Shown: in pieces, positions 15,425 to 22,668 of the stretch | How positions within the stretch are numbered: the first letter of the stretch is position 1 | How the letters are laid out: each line of letters starts with the position of its first letter | Assembly (NCBI GenBank): GCA_043719825.1 | Contig: JAYSTK010000171.1 | Location: 1-55,154 of the forward strand | Length of the DNA: 55,154 nt | DNA from: Candidatus Kaiserbacteria bacterium | Lineage (GTDB): Bacteria; Patescibacteriota; Minisyncoccia; Phycocordibacterales; UBA918 | Direction: 5' to 3' | Made by a program: the position numbers and the translations under genes | The notes under the pieces: model-generated | What the model saw: only the letters and a program-made list of their open reading frames with translations | Told to the model about the DNA's origin: nothing | Databases searched by the model: none

Positions 15425-15610
15425 TGTAGAAACGAAAGTCGCCCCTACAGATACAGTAAGTGAATAAAAGTATCTGTAGGGGCGACTGTGTCGCGGTGCC
15501 ACCCTACTTCCCTGCCGTATTCGGCGCGGGCGCTTTAGTTCGCTCAGCTACGAGAACCGATCACAAAATGGTTTCGGTGGTTGTCAGCCACAGGAGCGAT
15601 ATACAAAGAT
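15425..15610 (-). promoter_or_regulatory. T-box riboswitch leader of the aspS operon (terminator/antiterminator type)
   Basis: The minus strand reads GUAGGGUGGCACCGCGAC (plus 15490-15507), matching the T-box core AGGGUGGNACCGCG. It is followed by an 18-bp terminator (plus 15437-15454 / 15470-15487) and UUUCGUUUC. A Stem III-like hairpin GCCG-AAUA-CGGC lies upstream. GAC followed by A sits in the loop GUGG-CUGACAA-CCAC (GAC = plus 15583-15585). Confidence 0.8.
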
Positions 15611-15683
15611 TCTATAAGGATTGTGAGGTTTGGTCAAATTGAAATACTTGACAGACCAATATTATTTGTATATAGTATCATCA

Positions 15684-15848
15684 CTTGACTGGATAGCTTT
15701 GATGTTCTCAACATCACTGCAAAGCCACAGGTTAGCATCAGGCACTGTACCCAAAGTTTGGTGCGAAATGGGTAGGCTTAGGAAGTGGTCGTCCGAAAGC
15801 TGACATAGACCAAGGTCCCATGCATGAGCATTGGGACCTTTCTTTTAC
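15684..15848 (+). ncRNA. orphan structured small RNA candidate (family not recognised)
   Basis: Promoter: TTGACA (15648-15653), 17-nt spacer, TATAGT (15671-15676). Terminator: 9-bp hairpin AAGGTCCCA/TGGGACCTT (15812-15840) followed by TCTTTT. Nested stems: GCTTTG...CAAAGC around GATGTT..AACATC, GTTAGC...GCTGAC, TACCCA...TGGGTA. Lies between aspS and trpS, on the opposite strand to both. Confidence 0.4.
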
Positions 15849-15849
15849 T

Positions 15850-16794
15850 TTAGAGTGAAATACCAACTTTTTGTCTAACTTCCTGCATCTTCTTTGAAGC
15901 GCGTTCGCGGGCGCGGGCGGCGCCATCCTGAAGAATAGCTTTCACGTCGTTGTCTGTGATCGCCGCGCGTGCTTCACGCATTGGACTCACGTATACATTA
16001 ATGTCCTCAATAAGAGCTTCTTTTAGATTCTTATATTTCCCTTTATTGGATTCATAAAGAAGTGAAAGTTCTGACTCAGATTTGAGGAGTTTGTGAATGG
16101 CGTACACATTTTCAGGTACGTCACTTCCTGAATTGGTCACAATACCCATAACCGCCTTTTGTATCTCCTCATGTGTTCCAAAAAGTGGAATGGTGTTCTT
16201 GTAGCTCTTCGACATTTTCTGTCCATCGGTGCCCGGAACTATACCTACCGCTGTAAGAATTTTTTCTTGAGGGGGTACAAATGTTTCACCAAAGGCATTA
16301 TTAAATTTTGTGGCAGCTTCGCGTGCATATTCGATGTGCTGACGTTGGTCCTCCCCCACCGGGACGACCTCCGTATCATAGAGTAAAATATCTGCTGCCA
16401 TGAGCATTGGGTAATTAAAAAGTCCTGCACTCGCTTCGACACCCTTTGCCGTTTTATCTTTGTACGCGTGTGCTTGCATAAGAAATGGAACAGTAACGAG
16501 ACATTCAAATATCCAGGCAAGTTCAGTATGTTCAGGCACATCTGATTGCTTGAAAATGATTGCTTCTTTTGGATCAACACCAACGGCAATGTAGTCTTTC
16601 ACGACATCTAGAATGTTTTGACGAAGAGCACTTGCATCACGAACCGTGGTGAGTGAGTGAAGGTCTGCAACCATAAGGTGGCTTTCGTAATCACGATAGA
16701 CATCAGTAAAAGGTTTTAGCACACCAAAATAGTTTCCGATATGGAGCACACCGGAGGATTGTAGACCAGTGAGAAGTCGTTTTTTATTACTCAT
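15850..16794 (-). CDS. trpS: tryptophanyl-tRNA synthetase
   Basis: GVLHIGNYFG (HIGH-type) and KMSKS. I set the start at MSNKKRLLTG (ATG 16792-16794) rather than the upstream in-frame codon of the track ORF. Confidence 0.93.
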   Translation of the reverse strand: MSNKKRLLTGLQSSGVLHIGNYFGVLKPFTDVYRDYESHLMVADLHSLTTVRDASALRQNILDVVKDYIAVGVDPKEAIIFKQSDVPEHTELAWIFECLVTVPFLMQAHAYKDKTAKGVEASAGLFNYPMLMAADILLYDTEVVPVGEDQRQHIEYAREAATKFNNAFGETFVPPQEKILTAVGIVPGTDGQKMSKSYKNTIPLFGTHEEIQKAVMGIVTNSGSDVPENVYAIHKLLKSESELSLLYESNKGKYKNLKEALIEDINVYVSPMREARAAITDNDVKAILQDGAARARERASKKMQEVRQKVGISL

Positions 16795-16926
16795 ACTATG
16801 AATACTAACAAAATCAGTAGTGTTTAGAAAGCACATTTTATAAATGGGTCAGACAACATAAATCACCTGACTTAATTGACAAAATGAATTATAAATGCAT
16901 AGTATATATCGGAACTGAACCTTGAA

Positions 16927-17505
16927 ATGGAGCACATAATGATCATTACTCTCACTGGACCTTCTGGTGTTGGTAAGGGTCACCTCACCGCACAGCTGCA
17001 ATCTGAGCTCGGAGCAAAGATTGTCCCCTGGACTACGACACGGCCAGCTCGCTCTGATGATGTTACGACCAACAACCGTCGTTTTGTCACCCGGGAGGAG
17101 TTTGATCTGATGCAGTCTGAGGGATTGCTTATCGGCGTCCAAAACCTGCATGGACACAAATACGGTCTGGAGCAAACGCTTCTCGGGATGACCGACAGAG
17201 AAGGAACATACATTTGCGAAATCAACAGCGCTAATGTCCTGACCCTCTTCCCTGTTATTTATCGACGTTTCAGCGTTGCTCTCGTCACCGATGATTTTCA
17301 ACTGTTGAAAGAGCGTATTCAGAAACGCGAACCCAATGTTGGGAATGTGGAACTGAGAGACCGTCTGGAAACAGCGGTCAAGGAGGTGGGACTTGTTCGC
17401 ACCAACGCATCATTGTTCCATCTACAAATCAACGTCGATATCTGCCACGCATCAGCAGTCGCGTCCATCGCGATTGAAGCCATCAGAAAAGGAGTAGGCT
17501 CATGA
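16927..17505 (+). CDS. guanylate kinase-like P-loop kinase
   Basis: P-loop GPSGVGKG, then TTTRPARSDD, FVTREEFDLM and HGHKYGL, in guanylate-kinase order. Visibly GC-richer than the surroundings. Its stop overlaps the next start (ATGA). Confidence 0.75.
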   Translation: MEHIMIITLTGPSGVGKGHLTAQLQSELGAKIVPWTTTRPARSDDVTTNNRRFVTREEFDLMQSEGLLIGVQNLHGHKYGLEQTLLGMTDREGTYICEINSANVLTLFPVIYRRFSVALVTDDFQLLKERIQKREPNVGNVELRDRLETAVKEVGLVRTNASLFHLQINVDICHASAVASIAIEAIRKGVGS

Positions 17506-18654
17506 ATATTCGGACAAAAGTCGGCTTGGTTGAACTGAACAGCCCGCTCCTTATCGGTTCAGGCTACATCACGGAGGATACTTCGTTCTATGCTCGCTCG
17601 GTCACTCGTGGCTGTGCTGGCATGGTTTCGAGGTCGCTCAAGCTGAACGTTCCCAAAGAACGTCAGCGCGTACCTGCACCTCGCTACGTCGTCACCAATG
17701 ACGGATCGATGCTCAACTGTGAGTGGGGCAATGAAAAACCGTGGACGGATTGGCGAGAAAAAGAGTTTCGTCTGGCCAAAGAGATTCGGGGTGCCATCAT
17801 CATCTCCATCAGTGGGCGTGATGTGGAAAGTTGCAAACAGCTAATCCACGAACTCGACCCGTTCGAACCAGATGCATACGAGGTGAACATCTCGTATGCA
17901 CACTCAGGTGAGCTTCACGGCAACCTGAATCTGGACATCGAACATCTCAGGTACGTCCTTCGCACCATTCGACCCCTGACAAAGAGGCCGATCTGGGTAA
18001 AGCTGTCCTACTCGTCAATCCTTCTGGACATGGCGGTGGCGGCTGAGCAAAATGGAGCTGACGCAATCGTGTGCACCAACTCGATCGGACCGGGACTATA
18101 TCTCGATCCAAAGACTGGTCGCCCGCTACTCGGAATCATGGGTGGAGCTGGTGGACTCACAGGTAGTGCGATCTTTCCGATTGCCCTCCAGTGTGTGTAC
18201 AAGCTATATACACCTGAGCATTCCCATCGTGGGTGTCGGCGGAATAAGCACTGCCGAACATGTGGTTCAGATGATGCTCGCTGGTGCAAGTGCGGTTCAA
18301 CTATACACCGCTCCTGCACTGCACGGTCCCCGTGTCTTTGAGGACATCACCAATGGCCTCGAAAGTTACCTTGCGGACCATGAAGTGTTCTCGAACTGCG
18401 CCGAGCTGGTCGGGTATTCACATACCCTGACCGAACAGCATGTGTTCGATGCGCCTCCCCCACTGGTGATTGCTGACAAATGCACAGGATGTCTCGAGTG
18501 TGCATCATCATGCGCATTTGAAGCCCTCAAGTTTGTCAGTCGAGGAGCAGACCAGCCGAAGCTCGTAGTCATCAAAGACAACTGCATCGGTTGCAACGCG
18601 TGCGTCGGCGTCTGTCCCCCAGAATTCGATGCATTTAAGATCCAAATGAGGTAA
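17502..18654 (+). pseudogene. PreA / dihydroorotate-dihydropyrimidine dehydrogenase-like flavoprotein with C-terminal 2x[4Fe-4S] domain, interrupted by a frameshift
   Basis: The frame-0 ORF (17502..18341) carries the TIM-barrel N-terminal part up to GGLTGSAIFPIALQCVYKLY. The frame+1 ORF (18052..18654) continues with IHLSIPIVGVGGISTAEHVVQMMLAGASAVQLYTA, then CTGCLECASSC and CIGCNACVGVCP. The frames join at the TATATA tract near 18207-18215. Confidence 0.75.
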
Positions 18655-18656
18655 CT

Positions 18657-18917
18657 ATGAAAAAAACCAAACGCCTCTTTGGCATTAAAATCCATTGTGC
18701 TCAGTGTCTCGCTTTTTTGTTCAAGTACGAAAAGGAGGGCCCTGGCTCATTGGTAAAATGCTTCACGAGCAATATCAGCGAGGATGCCACAAAAGGCGAC
18801 GGGGTTTGTGCCTCATGTGTTACGCAGTTTGCTCGTGACGGGAAGATTGGCAATCGTCCCATCCTCAAGATAATCCAAGGTCGTGTAAACGTGAAGGGTA
18901 ACACCGGAAAGAAATAG
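18657..18917 (+). CDS. small Zn-ribbon-like protein, unknown function
   Basis: CAQC ... CASC cysteine pairs. Starts 2 nt after the preceding stop. Same GC-rich composition as the two upstream genes. Confidence 0.5.
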   Translation: MKKTKRLFGIKIHCAQCLAFLFKYEKEGPGSLVKCFTSNISEDATKGDGVCASCVTQFARDGKIGNRPILKIIQGRVNVKGNTGKK

Positions 18918-18957
18918 CAACATTGGAATTAGCCATCCCTTGCAACAGGGGTGGTTT

Positions 18958-19572
18958 TTATATACCAAACGCATTTTTAAAATATGTCTCTGACTCCACA
19001 TTGGCATCAAAAATGATGTTCGCTTCTTTATTCAACAACTCTATATACGCAAAGTATTCTGCGTCGGAATATGTAGTCAGATTTAATTCGTCTAGAACCT
19101 CTTTGAGTGAAGACTGTGCTTTTTCAGTTCCTTCTGTTTCAGATAATTCGATTTCCGCTTCAAAAAAATATGAATGCCCCGGCACTTCTACCATCGCAAT
19201 TTCTACACCATGATATGTGTACACATTTATATTGCGTACACATAACACTCCCTTACTAAGACCAAGTAATTTATATACCTGCACTAACGTATCAAACGGA
19301 TCGTTTGTCTTGAGGCTGTATTCACGACGAACATCACTACCGCCCCACGCACCAGTCTTTAAAATAATTTCAGAAAGTTTATTCGTATTTCGTAAACGAA
19401 TATCTAGTTTACGACCTTCAATCCCCTGCTCTGGTAAACATGTACTGTAATCAATCAATATTCGCTCTTTTCTTTGAATAAACTCCCCATTTTTAAGTAT
19501 TTTTTCTATTAGAGCAGGAATATATAACTTATCCAGTAATCCTCTCATCTCGATTTCAATAGTTTTTGACAT
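18958..19572 (-). CDS. CYTH domain protein (CyaB/triphosphate tunnel metalloenzyme-like)
   Basis: N-terminal IEIEMRG (ExExK-like), central DIRLR and LKTG, C-terminal GHSYFFEAEIEL, typical of CYTH. Composition is AT-rich, like the host backbone. Confidence 0.65.
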   Translation of the reverse strand: MSKTIEIEMRGLLDKLYIPALIEKILKNGEFIQRKERILIDYSTCLPEQGIEGRKLDIRLRNTNKLSEIILKTGAWGGSDVRREYSLKTNDPFDTLVQVYKLLGLSKGVLCVRNINVYTYHGVEIAMVEVPGHSYFFEAEIELSETEGTEKAQSSLKEVLDELNLTTYSDAEYFAYIELLNKEANIIFDANVESETYFKNAFGI

Positions 19573-19605
19573 ACAGGTATTCTTAACGTCCCTAAGGGAT
19601 CTTTT

Positions 19606-19728
19606 TTAAAGATGACTCGCATACTCTTTATATGAATCGACAAAGGGTTTTAATGCTCCAAAATAATTGCCAATATGGAGCGTTCCTGAAGGTTGTAGGC
19701 CGGTAAGGAGGCGTTTTTTATTACTCAT
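19606..19728 (-). pseudogene. truncated diverged duplicate of the trpS 5' end (first 40 codons, then a stop)
   Basis: Encodes MSNKKRLLTGLQPSGTLHIGNYFGALKPFVDSYKEYASHL*. By hand count, 32 of 40 residues match the trpS N-terminus. A 30-nt run spanning the start codon (19712-19741) is identical to 16788-16817. Confidence 0.85.
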
Positions 19729-19765
19729 ACTATGAATACTAGCAAACATCAGTGAATCAAGAAAG

Positions 19766-20011
19766 TTATTTTGGATGTTTGATGATAGAAATAATAATGT
19801 AATGAGGTTCAACAATATAGAAGTAGAAACGCCAATTTCTATCAATGCGTGCCTGCCATAGATCGTCGTCACCTTTGTACTTTTTTGCGTGAAGTGATGG
19901 ATGACGAACATCATTCATAAGGTACTCAAATTGCTTGTCAGCTTGTTTTTGAAGTGTTGAGGTAAGTTTTTGGTATTGTCGTATTGCTACTTCTGTCAAC
20001 TTAACTCGCAT
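19766..20011 (-). CDS. RelE/ParE-family type II toxin
   Basis: 81 aa, with the pattern HPSLHAKKYKGDDDLWQARIDRNWRFYFYIV...IISIIKHPK typical of the RelE/ParE fold. Overlaps the upstream antitoxin gene by 11 nt. Confidence 0.7.
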   Translation of the reverse strand: MRVKLTEVAIRQYQKLTSTLQKQADKQFEYLMNDVRHPSLHAKKYKGDDDLWQARIDRNWRFYFYIVEPHYIIISIIKHPK

Positions 20012-20261
20012 CGTATTCTTTTATCTTTTTCTTGAATTCATTGGTAGAGCCAAATTCTATGTATCTTCCCGCTTTAATATCCTCAAGTGACTTCTTTATG
20101 TCGCGCATAAGAGGAGCGTCTCTTTCTACTCCACGTTCAAGAATAATTTGATTATCTTTTTGTGAGACAAAAAGAACCTCGCCTTCTTTAAGGTCGAGAG
20201 ATTCACGTATTTTCTTCGGAAGTGTCAGTGTGCCTCGTTGTTGAATGCGTATAGTGTTCAT
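20001..20261 (-). CDS. AbrB/SpoVT/MazE-type antitoxin
   Basis: N-terminal looped-hinge-helix pattern IRIQQRGTLTLPKKIRESLDLKEGEVLFV. 86 aa. Lies upstream of and overlaps the toxin gene. Confidence 0.7.
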   Translation of the reverse strand: MNTIRIQQRGTLTLPKKIRESLDLKEGEVLFVSQKDNQIILERGVERDAPLMRDIKKSLEDIKAGRYIEFGSTNEFKKKIKEYDAS

Positions 20262-20318
20262 GTGCTATATAATATCATAATACTGAAAATCTGCAAATCT
20301 GTATTTCAGGAAATAACG

Positions 20319-20510
20319 TTATCGATTTCGTATTAGAAAGAGTGTGGTTGCAGCAATTGCACCCAGAGTGTCGGCGAGCATGTCTTTCTGAGCATCCTAT
20401 ATGTCACCCTGGCTTCCAAGATACGATGCTCCAGCTTCTGGTGCAGCACTTGCAATGTATACCCATTCAATGAGTTCGTAGCTCATAGCGATTGTTGTAA
20501 TAGCAAATAC
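20319..20510 (-). pseudogene. remnant of a DUF2238 (YjdF-like) membrane protein gene with an in-frame stop
   Basis: Minus-strand translation gives ...AITTIAMSYELIEWVYIASAAPEAGASYLGSQGDI*DAQKDMLADTLGAIAATTLFLIRNR*. The ELIEW...GxQGDxWDxQxDM pattern matches DUF2238 as I recall it. TAG sits where the conserved Trp (TGG) is expected. No N-terminal part is present. Confidence 0.45.
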
Positions 20511-20529
20511 GGGATATTAAAAGAGAAGC

Positions 20530-20889
20530 TCACTCAATAACAAGTTTTGATTGAGTACGGTCAAGAACACTATTTATCTGTTCATTCGTAAGATCTGCAA
20601 ACGATAGTTTTGGATCGCAGTAGTGTCTTCCAGTTCGAATTTTTCCATTTTGGAGTTCAAGTACTATGACTTGTGGAGTTCGGTACACTTTTCCCGTATC
20701 AGGATCTGGATAACTTTCAATCATTTCTACCATTACCACGTCTTCACTTTCAATTATATTTCGAATGTCGTACCGACGACCACGGATTACGTACACCTCT
20801 TCAAGTTCAGATTCAAGATGTGGTGTTGTCTTTGGAAAGAATTCGTCACCTTTCTGGTACATCCAGGTCATAGTGTAATCCTCAGACAT
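20530..20889 (-). CDS. SnoaL/NTF2-like fold protein (hypothetical)
   Basis: 119 aa. C-terminal VIVLELQNGKIRTGRHYCDP resembles the dGKI...y.D end of SnoaL-like proteins. This is a weak call. Confidence 0.45.
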   Translation of the reverse strand: MSEDYTMTWMYQKGDEFFPKTTPHLESELEEVYVIRGRRYDIRNIIESEDVVMVEMIESYPDPDTGKVYRTPQVIVLELQNGKIRTGRHYCDPKLSFADLTNEQINSVLDRTQSKLVIE

Positions 20890-20993
20890 CTTTTCAAGTG
20901 CAGATGCGACATCACCGTCAACCTCATTTTTAGAATACCTAGAACTATTTCAACATTTTTACTTTGAGCCATATGATCGAATTATTTGGCTTT

Positions 20994-21065
20994 TCAACTT
21001 AGGAGTGAAAATTCAATATTGAAGGTAGAGCCTAGACCTTCTGATTTTGGAATGACTTTTCCTTT
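20994..21065 (-). pseudogene. remnant of a histidine kinase 3' end
   Basis: Minus strand encodes KGKVIPKSEGLGSTFNIEFSLLS*. Compare the end of the intact kinase at 22807: GGRVWAESEGEGQGSTFNIEFPLI*. The nucleotide match GAAAATTCAATATTGAAGGTAGAGCC...GACCTTCT is clear by eye. Confidence 0.55.
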
Positions 21066-21096
21066 AATTTAATCCACCATTTATCATTTTATAACT

Positions 21097-21567
21097 TTAA
21101 TTTTTGCAATATTTAGTAACAAAGTCCTGTGCTCCTTTAATATTAGCAGTTGTACCATTCCGAACAGGAAGAGAACTTTTACCATTTAAAATATTTTGAA
21201 AATCCATACAGGACTCGTCAATGTATTCTCGGTATACTTCATAGGCACTATGCATAAGAGTAATTGCATCGTTTGAACAGCCAGAATTTGCAATATCACT
21301 TTTTTCACTTTTAAATGGTATAAGTACGCTTAAATAATCATCATTAATGTCACTTACTGATACAGTATTTTCATCTATATCAATGACTATGCGCTTTTCC
21401 TCAGCTTTAGGATTGCTATAGTTTTTGCAATTACTTTTTAATTCTTGGTCAATCTGGAAGCCTAATACCCATGGACCCATTGCGAATGCTAGCAAAATAG
21501 CTGTCGCAAGACCAAGGAAACAGGCTATCAGCTTTTGGAGAGTAACGTGTGAAATAAATTTTCTCAT
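21097..21567 (-). CDS. membrane-anchored hypothetical protein, paralog of 22249..22668
   Basis: I set the start at MRKFISH to avoid overlap with the upstream gene. N-terminal TM. Shares the SGCS...EVY.EY motif with the 22249 protein (IANSGCSNDAITLMHSAYEVYREY vs FSGCSPEIQEKMLEINEIAKEVYGEEY). Confidence 0.55.
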   Translation of the reverse strand: MRKFISHVTLQKLIACFLGLATAILLAFAMGPWVLGFQIDQELKSNCKNYSNPKAEEKRIVIDIDENTVSVSDINDDYLSVLIPFKSEKSDIANSGCSNDAITLMHSAYEVYREYIDESCMDFQNILNGKSSLPVRNGTTANIKGAQDFVTKYCKN

Positions 21568-21586
21568 GTAAATATTAATCAAAGAA

Positions 21587-22231
21587 TTAGTAAACGGCAT
21601 TGATACCATTTCTGTCAGTTGACTGATAGCCAGTAATTTGTGTCCATCTCCCACTATTGCACCCAAGAGTCCCATCATTCATTATTGAATCAGCAGAGCA
21701 GTGATGAGCAAGTCCAAGTGAGTGCCCAGTTTCATGCATAATAAGTCTCTGTCGACTTAAAGAAGAAGCATTGTTCCACCATGCCAAGCTAATCTTAATC
21801 TGTGACCGAACTCCGCATGGGTATGTCTGCTGCCAAAAAGTGCAGTACGAAGAAGTATTTTTAATATCAAAGTTTTCTCCTGGTGTTGGGTGTGTGCTTA
21901 CATAGCTTAATTTAATATCAGTGTTGTAACTCCATGTGCCAGAACAATTGTACTGTGACATTTTTATGCCATTTTTCCAGTCAGACATTTCGGTCGTACC
22001 TGTAGTTGAAGTTTTAATTTTTGAAAACGCACTCGTTTCTGCTGAGTTACAATTTGTAGAAGACACATAAAGCAACCCTGAATACCCGGATTTGACACTC
22101 ATCCATAAATGACCAACCGATGGGAAAGTTCCCTTTGTGTGTGATGCGTTTGCGAAATATGTCGAAGTTACCAAAAGAATAGTAAACGTCCCTGTAAACA
22201 CTATATACTGTCCAATAAAATTATTTGTCAT
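21587..22231 (-). CDS. secreted zinc metalloprotease, metzincin-type (snapalysin/matrixin-like)
   Basis: HETGHSLGLAHH (HExxHxxGxxH) followed by SIMND (Met-turn candidate). Hydrophobic N-terminal signal-like segment. Confidence 0.8.
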   Translation of the reverse strand: MTNNFIGQYIVFTGTFTILLVTSTYFANASHTKGTFPSVGHLWMSVKSGYSGLLYVSSTNCNSAETSAFSKIKTSTTGTTEMSDWKNGIKMSQYNCSGTWSYNTDIKLSYVSTHPTPGENFDIKNTSSYCTFWQQTYPCGVRSQIKISLAWWNNASSLSRQRLIMHETGHSLGLAHHCSADSIMNDGTLGCNSGRWTQITGYQSTDRNGINAVY

Positions 22232-22248
22232 GTTTATTTTTAATATTC

Positions 22249-22668
22249 CTATCTATTAAATAACAAATCATATTCTTCACCGTATACTTCTTTTGCTATC
22301 TCATTAATTTCTAGCATTTTTTCCTGTATTTCCGGTGAACACCCAGAAAAACCTGACTTGGGTTCAAAGGGTAAAGTGGCAGAGGCATTTTCACCACTTG
22401 TGTCAGACCAAAAAAAGGTTACTGTTCCATCTAAATTGAATGTTGAATCATCTATCTGTGAGACCGAGACTGGCAAGGTACAAGTAAAAGATGCCGTATT
22501 TTTCTCGGGTATGCCGACGTGTATAGGTGTAACATTAACAGAATTTTCATTCTGCACATCACTTACTTGCTTGACCAAGACTTGATAACCAAGGGTAATA
22601 AAAATAGCAACCAAAAAGAGTAAAACGAGGATGACAAAACTTTGTTTTTTCATACCAATCAACTTCAT
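22249..22668 (-). CDS. membrane-anchored hypothetical protein, paralog of 21097..21567
   Basis: N-terminal TM (FVILVLLFLVAIFITLGY). Carries the shared SGCS/EVY motif. Confidence 0.55.
   Translation of the reverse strand: MKLIGMKKQSFVILVLLFLVAIFITLGYQVLVKQVSDVQNENSVNVTPIHVGIPEKNTASFTCTLPVSVSQIDDSTFNLDGTVTFFWSDTSGENASATLPFEPKSGFSGCSPEIQEKMLEINEIAKEVYGEEYDLLFNR

Follow-up and report, generated by a model that had tools for sequence, protein, structure and literature searches.

A probable recently broken and laterally acquired copy of a patescibacterial gene module for a candidate nucleotide-ring reductase

Two sets of described systems lie close to the gene cassette that is the subject of this study. 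The first is represented by PydAc of Clostridium chromiireducens, an enzyme that reduces uracil at the expense of reduced ferredoxin and has no flavin adenine dinucleotide (FAD) domain (PMC7332683). The second comprises the pathways towards C-nucleoside antibiotics: the biosynthesis of malayamycin starts from free pseudouridine 5'-phosphate and involves a TruD-like enzyme, the enolpyruvyl transferase MalO, acting on pseudo-UMP, and the radical SAM enzyme MalJ, and that of pseudouridimycin involves a TruD-like enzyme together with a kinase (both PMC8724604). We analyzed a stretch of 55,154 nucleotides from a Candidatus Kaiserbacteria genome (contig JAYSTK010000171.1; referred to as the window in the following), which carries genes for a guanylate-kinase-like protein, a flavoprotein with iron-sulfur clusters and a small zinc-ribbon-like protein, and a converging gene for a CYTH-type protein. 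The cassette had attracted attention because the flavoprotein reads Tyr-Ala-His at the place where related dehydrogenases have Cys-Pro, and this had been taken as the mark of an altered active site. Our analysis leads to a different view: the window probably holds a recently broken and laterally acquired copy of a module of sporadic occurrence in Patescibacteria, and the intact module probably is a reductase for the ring of a uridine- or pseudouridine-type nucleotide.

Lesions in the flavoprotein gene

The domain composition of the flavoprotein was recovered as originally predicted. The Pfam searches identified the TIM barrel of the dihydroorotate and dihydropyrimidine dehydrogenases (DHOD and DPD, respectively; PF01180, DHO_dh) and a C-terminal di-cluster ferredoxin domain with eight cysteines for two [4Fe-4S] clusters (Fer4_21, Fer4_7 and related models). 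The best NCBIfam match was PyrD class 1 with 169 bits (cut-offs of 270 for TIGR01037 and 269 for NF005574 not reached) and the frame-merged protein scored 138.5 bits against the PreA equivalog NF006183 (cut-off of 335 not reached), which supports the earlier suggestion that the protein, as judged by these models, is neither a standard DPD nor a standard DHOD. For P0002, an intact homolog of 384 amino acids that is 95% identical to the window flavoprotein, the AlphaFold model (predicted local distance difference test score, pLDDT, 78) had pig DPD as its top fold match (E 2e-22) and DHOD B as the second. More than 1,100 homologs were found at around 55% identity, mostly labelled Patescibacteria (Paceibacterota, Uhrbacteria, Saccharibacteria).

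An alignment made with phmmer against the Protein Data Bank (PDB) paired ELNLSCPHG of pig DPD, which includes the catalytic Cys671, with EVNISYAHSG of the window. The tyrosine thus stands exactly at the position of the catalytic cysteine, as had been supposed. The uracil-binding residues of DPD (Asn609, Glu611, Asn668, Ser670, Asn736 and Thr737) align identically or conservatively, within the segments N-C-E, N-I-S and T-N-S. What did not survive is the idea that the altered site is a property of the enzyme: a motif count retrieved Cys at the catalytic position, within the motif N-[IV]-S-C-x-H-S-G, in 119 of the 120 best homologs and in all 44 related loci, the window being the sole case of Tyr, and Cys also occurs in all 29 aligned homologs. 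P0002 reads EVNISCAHSG. The residue that follows the catalytic Cys varies within the family (mostly Ser, Pro in 9 and Ala in 6 homologs) and Cys-Ala therefore represents ordinary family variation.

The gene was said to need frame correction, and it is indeed split over two frames (17502-18209 and 18211-18654). A DNA comparison with the four closest relatives (L001, L002, L073 and L074) makes both lesions evident, namely the change of TGT to TAT at the catalytic codon and the loss of 2 nt further downstream (Table 1). The exact truncated product of 279 amino acids was recovered a second time, from a Logan contig of independent assembly (L085), which was seen in two samples and is 100% identical to window positions 15529-22341, both lesions and both junctions of the cassette included. 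An assembly error specific to the metagenome-assembled genome (MAG) is therefore unlikely to be behind the lesions.

The ratio of nonsynonymous to synonymous substitution rates (dN/dS) for the flavoprotein gene of the window versus that of L001 was 0.03-0.05; the changes were split evenly, with 34 synonymous and 7 nonsynonymous ones on the window branch and 30 and 7 on the branch of L001. As both branches carry 7 nonsynonymous changes, the flavoprotein gene gave no sign of relaxed selection in the window, and the numbers for the CYTH gene (13 nonsynonymous changes on the window branch versus 6) did not differ significantly. As the ratio is this low and little other change has accumulated, the inactivation should be recent, and the substitution pattern indicates that the reductase gene was strongly constrained until very recently.

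The same data could be read in favor of a functional gene, in which a programmed +1 shift, or an error of assembly, accounts for the two frames and in which Tyr replaces Cys as the proton donor. Purifying selection is strong in the pairwise comparison and the kinase, zinc-protein and CYTH genes of the window are intact, as would suit such a gene, but a low dN/dS is equally expected when the inactivation is recent; moreover, two independent lesions occur in one gene and both recur in the second assembly, Tyr and shift are unique among more than 160 sequences, and the shift site offers no slippery or stop-codon context common to the relatives. We consider a functional tyrosine variant highly improbable. 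Since Tyr and the frameshift are the two lesions that inactivate this pseudogene, the residue provides no evidence for unusual chemistry, and the Tyr-Ala-His motif, judged from these comparisons, represents decay of the active site and not a new one. The outcome is in this respect mainly corrective: the motif that made the cassette attractive is a knockout mutation and gives no basis for new catalysis.

Acquisition and layout of the cassette

The cassette had been called foreign-looking and had been noted to lie in a GC-rich patch. The patch itself is real, with a GC content of 51.5% for the trio of kinase, flavoprotein and zinc-protein genes against 39.7% for the remaining window (the CYTH gene has 35%). 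It was rejected as proof of foreignness, as the GC content of the trio exceeds that of the flanks in 25 of 26 loci (by 6.3 points on average, with the CYTH gene being lower every time) and is thus a family trait. The foreign origin follows instead from phyletic absence and from an empty site. The assembly that holds the window is a Patescibacteria genome of 0.94 Mb and 79% completeness; no ortholog of the flavoprotein was found in 40 of its relatives (20 congeneric species, 4 from the same family and 16 from the same order, with a completeness of at least 90% in 36 cases), and within a sample of 200 genomes spread evenly across the phylum the module flavoprotein was present in one (about 0.5% of the sampled species). 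The nearest DNA was found on three metagenome contigs (L001-L003), with 85% identity that is confined to 16891-19573, from the kinase gene through the CYTH gene, and with unrelated flanks.

In the nearest genome of the same genus (G022, locus L062), p119, the gene for an AbrB/MazE-like protein, relE and trpS are contiguous and constitute the empty site; in the window, a block of 2.8 kb stands between relE and trpS (insert about 16875-19610). Two direct copies of the trpS 5' end, both of which contain the promoter-proximal 40 nt, flank the block (Table 1). The four-gene block 16891-19573 reached this genus by lateral transfer, into the 5' end of trpS. No integrase was found at the insert, and the simplest route of entry would be by recombination, with the incoming DNA contributing a trpS 5' end of its own; in three other genomes, the distance between trpS and the module is no more than a few kb. 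The two 5' copies could not be assigned as native or incoming because their identities to the relatives are too similar. Phage origin was also considered and rejected: no relative was found in IMG/VR, and the GenBank phages yielded only DHOD barrels of about 30% identity that have no Fe-S domain. Co-occurrence of the trio in other genomes and in phages had been suggested as a check; genomes show it in the 43 loci described below, and no phage copies were found.

The transfer provides a natural example of lateral gain followed by quick inactivation in a streamlined genome of the candidate phyla radiation (CPR), in which the empty site, the duplication at the junctions and both lesions have been identified. 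Moreover, as a block of 2.7 kb moved as a whole, it lends independent support to the notion that kinase, reductase, zinc protein and CYTH protein travel as a unit.

The coordinates of the features are collected in Table 1. The three plus-strand genes are coupled in the way that had been predicted: the stop codon of the kinase gene overlaps the start of the flavoprotein gene in ATGA (17502-17505), and the stop codon of the latter (18652-18654) is separated by 2 nt from the ATG of the zinc-protein gene at 18657. The open reading frame of the kinase opens at 16927 (192 amino acids), the equivalent of the start codon in the relatives being 16939, with GGAG 6 nt upstream. In a consensus scan the predicted promoter, with TTGACA at 16876, came out as the top promoter-like match in the region (10/12; a consensus match only). 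On the far side of the insert, the minus strand encodes an overlapping (11 nt) pair of a RelE/ParE-like toxin (81 amino acids) and an AbrB/MazE-like antitoxin (86 amino acids) at 19766-20261; the same pair with the same neighbours is present in G022.

Table 1. Features in and around the cassette (positions in the window)
Feature	Positions	Strand	Remarks
Functional trpS	15850-16836	-	PF00579 188.7 bits, full gene; likely start MSNKK at 16794
trpS 5'-end copy A	16708..16818	-	within functional trpS; 81% identity over 112 nt to 19642-19753
Promoter-like site before the kinase gene	16876..16905	+	TTGACA, 16-18 nt, CATAGT/TAGTAT
Guanylate-kinase-fold P-loop kinase gene	16939..17505	+	188 amino acids from the conserved start; intact
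DPD/PreA-like TIM-barrel flavoprotein (flavin mononucleotide, FMN) with C-terminal 2x[4Fe-4S]	17502..18654	+	pseudogene, two frames
Tyr codon TAT at the catalytic Cys position (pig DPD Cys671)	17895..17897	+	TGT in L001, L002, L073 and L074
Frameshift site	18207..18213	+	TAT-A-CAC in the window, TAT-AAA-CAC (Tyr-Lys-His) in relatives; 2 nt missing
Cys4(+1) zinc-ribbon-like protein, 86 amino acids	18657..18917	+	intact
GC-rich terminator-like hairpin	18931..18956	.	strand unassigned; between the convergent zinc-protein and CYTH genes
CYTH/triphosphate-tunnel-type protein, 204 amino acids	18958..19572	-	intact; converges on the trio
trpS 5'-end remnant	19606..19755	-	about 48 codons and promoter region; PF00579 22.7 bits; copy B is 19642-19753

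The intact module and its candidate function

The organization of the module was read from 43 genome loci, in which missing members are mostly due to contig ends. A conserved order was found throughout: kinase, flavoprotein, zinc protein, and then, convergently, the CYTH gene and a gene of the TruD family, with variable genes outside (the zinc protein is present in 36 loci, CYTH in 32 and TruD in 27). In one locus (L013) all five genes are co-directional. The kinase gene adjoins the flavoprotein gene in nearly all loci and is fused to it in three cases (L012, L037 and P0030), which bears out the proposed partnership with a kinase acting on nucleoside monophosphates (NMPs); likewise, the CYTH gene, which had been noted as a neighbour, belongs to the unit and lies inside the 85%-identical block that the window has in common with L001-L003. 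The window holds the first four genes in order, without an adjacent TruD gene. A search of the genome (79% complete) yielded no TruD either, and the nearest clade (L001-L003, L073 and L074) has no TruD gene adjacent to the module.

Genes of the TruD family, of any type, were recovered from 11 of 201 sampled Patescibacteria; the 41 genomes from the window's order yielded none. In the sole module carrier of the phylum sample the TruD gene adjoins the module, and the other TruD genes are of a longer type with which it shares 24-29% identity. The module-type protein scores 144 bits to the TruD family, has retained the catalytic motif GLKDExA, is basic (isoelectric point, pI, of about 9.5) and matches the solved TruD/Pus7 structures weakly (46-50 bits). 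A homolog of the flavoprotein with 35% identity and the same motifs was found in a Legionella MAG, beside a TruD-like gene that shares 32% identity with the module type (E 1e-43). This locus (L051, CAMCUM010000026.1, 446-7191; also L049) encodes: the TruD-like protein, a CmlA-like diiron hydroxylase, a radical SAM protein, an enolpyruvyl transferase of the MurA/EPSP/NikO type and the flavoprotein homolog, and from its gene content it looks like a nucleoside natural-product cluster of the malayamycin or polyoxin type. The rarity of TruD, the existence of a module-specific type and the Legionella cluster together give the reductase family a new context, namely a link to those TruD-like enzymes that have free nucleotides as substrates.

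Some further observations on these genes were made. The two TruD types of the Patescibacteria, seen in a comparison of L076-L081 and L082-L083 with L084, comprise long frames of about 470-540 amino acids, which score 166-204 bits and are unlinked to the module, and a short form of about 350 amino acids beside the module; in two genomes (G088 and G140) the short form occurs and the module does not. Near the Legionella cluster there are also genes for an aromatic amino-acid hydroxylase, a GrpB protein, an aminotransferase and a transporter of the MFS family. In Roizmanbacteria (L046, 695-5807) a pair of GK-like kinase and flavoprotein from a divergent subfamily was found, with the motifs NAEWTG and SCAHSN as in the Legionella protein; a protein of 524 amino acids encoded close to this pair contains EIEAK and weakly resembles VTC/triphosphate-tunnel proteins. 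Kinase, reductase and tunnel enzyme may have become associated before the main family arose.

The kinase of the window matched the guanylate kinase/PhnN family (67.3 bits to TIGR03263, cut-off of 160.45 not reached; 31 bits to PF00625), and the module kinases of 30 genomes scored 42-79 bits to TIGR03263. The P-loop (GPSGVGKG), the TTRPxR motif and the residues Arg38, Arg41 and Tyr78 have been retained. In an alignment to guanylate kinase (GK) structures, Glu69, Ser80 and Asp100 (yeast numbering), which we take to be the guanine-contacting residues on the basis of the yeast Guk1-GMP structure, are replaced by Gly, Leu and Asn, respectively. Two stand-in roles for the kinase were evaluated. That of a UMP kinase was rejected, because PyrH gave no signal (present in 2 of 30 carriers versus 1 of 41 non-carriers). 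As for Gmk, 20 of the 30 carriers have the module kinase only, but of 40 relatives without the module 28 lack any gene of the GK family, so that there is no clear complementarity between the module kinase and Gmk. PyrH was found in 3 of the 71 Patescibacteria genomes searched, and the relatives from the window's order without a GK-family gene are often 97-100% complete. The genome of the window (G000) contains a second, different GK-like gene on a 2.2-kb contig (C36:1552-2175; L075), with a GKST P-loop and 62.5 bits to TIGR03263, and weak GK-like genes resembling it occur in two genomes of the same genus.

The zinc protein had no Pfam or NCBIfam match. Five cysteines (C14, C17, C35, C51 and C54, i.e. 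CxxC...CxxC and a fifth Cys) are invariant in 23 homologs, the median pI is 9.5, and the AlphaFold2 model (pLDDT 82) is all beta-strand with seven strands. Foldseek retrieved no significant PDB match for this fold, the best being the C-terminal domain of RIG-I/DRH-3 (E 0.55, template-modelling score, TM, 0.45). The only matches that recurred for the model (m04d76373ab1f), none of them significant, were C-terminal zinc-binding domains, those of RIG-I, LGP2 and DRH-3 (TM around 0.45, E of at least 0.55); these domains recognise RNA 5' phosphates. Candidate roles of the zinc protein are those of a redox partner, a binder of RNA or nucleotides, and a scaffold. The CYTH protein of the window scored 29.8 bits to TIGR00318, under the cut-off, and had no Pfam match at E 0.01; an ortholog reaches 25.6 for PF01928 (CYTH) against a threshold of 23.2. 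The motifs EIEMR and FEAEIE are readable in the window protein, and its best relatives in the PDB are the archaeal CYTH proteins 2een and 1yem (weak matches).

Taken together, the comparison with characterised enzymes suggests that the C5=C6 bond of a uridine- or pseudouridine-type nucleotide is the probable target of the intact module, which would use low-potential electrons for its reduction. Electrons would pass from a low-potential donor (ferredoxin, possibly aided by the Cys4 protein) via the two [4Fe-4S] clusters to FMN, which would deliver a hydride to C6 of the uracil ring, with the conserved Cys protonating C5, as in the mechanism of DPD and PydAc. The ring would be carried on a phosphorylated nucleotide, the phosphorylation state of which could be set by the GK-like kinase and the CYTH phosphohydrolase, and in most lineages the TruD-like enzyme, the gene for which is missing in the window, would interconvert the N- and C-glycoside. 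A substrate at the level of the nucleotide is suggested because the kinase keeps the arginines that bind the NMP phosphate but not the guanine contacts, and because the Legionella homolog sits in a malayamycin-like gene set. Thymine is a substrate of DPD, and pseudouridine, which like thymine is substituted at C5 and which has a free N1, is an attractive candidate substrate.

Various points weigh against this interpretation. For every member of the family the substrate has been deduced from context only. A DPD-type pocket makes hydrogen bonds with every ring heteroatom of free uracil; a nucleotide ribosylated at N1 may fit such a pocket poorly and pseudouridine may fit it better. The window and its nearest clade lack an adjacent TruD gene, so the TruD step is not obligatory. 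As for the broken state of the window copy, the L085 contig and the MAG may stem from the same sample or community, and a minority intact allele may exist, since the lesions were read from assembled contigs.

The gene content of five module-bearing genomes bears on three other explanations. Neither dihydropyrimidinase/D-hydantoinase nor a PreT-type Fer4_20 protein was found in any of the five, or adjacent to the module in the 43 loci; OMP decarboxylase (for orotidine 5'-monophosphate) was not found over the cut-off in any of the five, and a canonical dihydrouridine synthase (Dus) is present in all five. A plain ferredoxin-dependent DPD, like PydAc or like PreA without PreT, could act on free uracil or thymine in catabolism or as an electron sink, with kinase, zinc protein, CYTH and TruD as mere neighbours. 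The domain architecture, the DPD-like binding residues, the catalytic Cys and DPD as top fold match would all agree with it, and PydAc is known to work with ferredoxin (PMC7332683). However, the score is far under the PreA cut-off and the five genomes lack the dihydropyrimidinase and the PreT-type partner; furthermore, the kinase-flavoprotein fusions and the order of five genes, kept despite varying flanks, would be surprising if the genes were unrelated neighbours, given how small these genomes are. We regard a plain DPD as rather unlikely.

Less likely still is that the module modifies RNA, in which case the TruD-like protein and a Dus-like flavoprotein would act on uridines in tRNA or rRNA, the zinc protein would bind RNA, and kinase and CYTH protein would act on RNA ends. 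The family score of TruD and its intact GLKDExA motif, the basic nature of both the zinc protein and this TruD type, and the RIG-I-type C-terminal domains, binders of RNA 5' ends, as best (non-significant) fold matches are compatible with such a role. Nevertheless, canonical Dus is already there in the five carriers examined, for which reason the flavoprotein was also rejected as an alternative dihydrouridine synthase; it has the closed base pocket of the DPD type and not the Dus architecture. The module TruD is closer to the gene from the nucleoside-antibiotic-type cluster than to tRNA TruD/Pus7, and a module that occurs in about one in 200 of the sampled species is not a core function in RNA modification.

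The PyrD class 1 model gave the best NCBIfam score, and the flavoprotein could on that ground be taken for the organism's PyrD, fused to an electron-transfer domain and serving de novo pyrimidine synthesis. This is the least probable of the explanations, as the score stays below the cut-off, the motif corresponds to that of DPD (SC[SAP]H) and not to that of DHOD (SCPN), OMP decarboxylase was not found in the five genomes, and the module itself was not found in nearly all relatives.

We thus retain the reading of the module as a reductase of uridine- or pseudouridine-type nucleotides. In a wider and tentative form, which is possible and no more than that, the module and its Legionella relative would represent an undescribed pathway on free nucleotides. 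A TruD-type enzyme would supply a pseudouridine nucleotide, and the ring of the latter would be the target of a ferredoxin-driven, DPD-like reductase. The resulting 5,6-dihydro-(pseudo)uridine nucleotide would serve ultra-small symbionts as a metabolite or bioactive C-nucleoside, and the window would record the gain and rapid loss of the pathway in a new host lineage. Through an intact member of the family, a new branch of pyrimidine or C-nucleoside metabolism could come to light in organisms that scavenge nucleotides.

Comparison with known systems

The module components were compared with the described systems they resemble most. The CYTH protein has the N-terminal ExExR/K and C-terminal ExE strands in common with the CYTH/triphosphate tunnel metalloenzyme (TTM) proteins CyaB, ThTPase and archaeal PH1819; it stays under the CyaB equivalog cut-off, and known CYTH proteins have not been described in a constant convergent arrangement with such a trio. 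The kinase has the full GK fold of Gmk (TIGR03263/PF00625), with P-loop and the TTRxxR clamp for the NMP phosphate, whereas its P-loop ends in GKG, as in adenylate kinases, and Gly, Leu and Asn occupy the positions of the guanine contacts.

The flavoprotein has the TIM barrel, the FMN site and the catalytic Cys in common with class 1B DHOD (PyrD of Lactococcus lactis), its second-best structural match. In contrast to that enzyme, it has no PyrK partner, reads SCxH instead of SCPN, and occurs in carriers without OMP decarboxylase (0/5). With mammalian DPD (domains IV-V) and PreA, which provide the top fold match, it shares the N-x-E, N-x-S-C-x-H and T-N-S/T motifs and the C-terminal eight-cysteine domain, but the identity is 21%, there is no PreT-like partner, and the module family has signatures of its own (NCEWGNE and SC[SA]HSGxLHGNLN).

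The gene set as a whole can, by description, be likened to the clusters with MalF (malayamycin) and PumJ (pseudouridimycin), in which an enzyme of the TruD family is likewise encoded beside nucleotide-tailoring enzymes and a kinase. Unlike these C-nucleoside antibiotic clusters, the patescibacterial module contains neither an enolpyruvyl transferase nor a radical SAM enzyme, and the window has no TruD. The closest characterised enzyme is PydAc, with which the flavoprotein shares the FMN-binding TIM barrel with fused [4Fe-4S] domain(s), the absence of an FAD/NAD(P)H module and, presumably, the low-potential donor and a Cys-dependent reduction of the uracil C5=C6 bond (the latter two being predicted for the module). 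PydAc has two ferredoxin domains and belongs to a catabolic Pyd cluster with dihydropyrimidinase, whereas the module flavoprotein has one di-cluster domain and no Pyd partners and, unlike PydAc, is accompanied by fixed nucleotide-handling neighbours, which in the window surround a broken copy.

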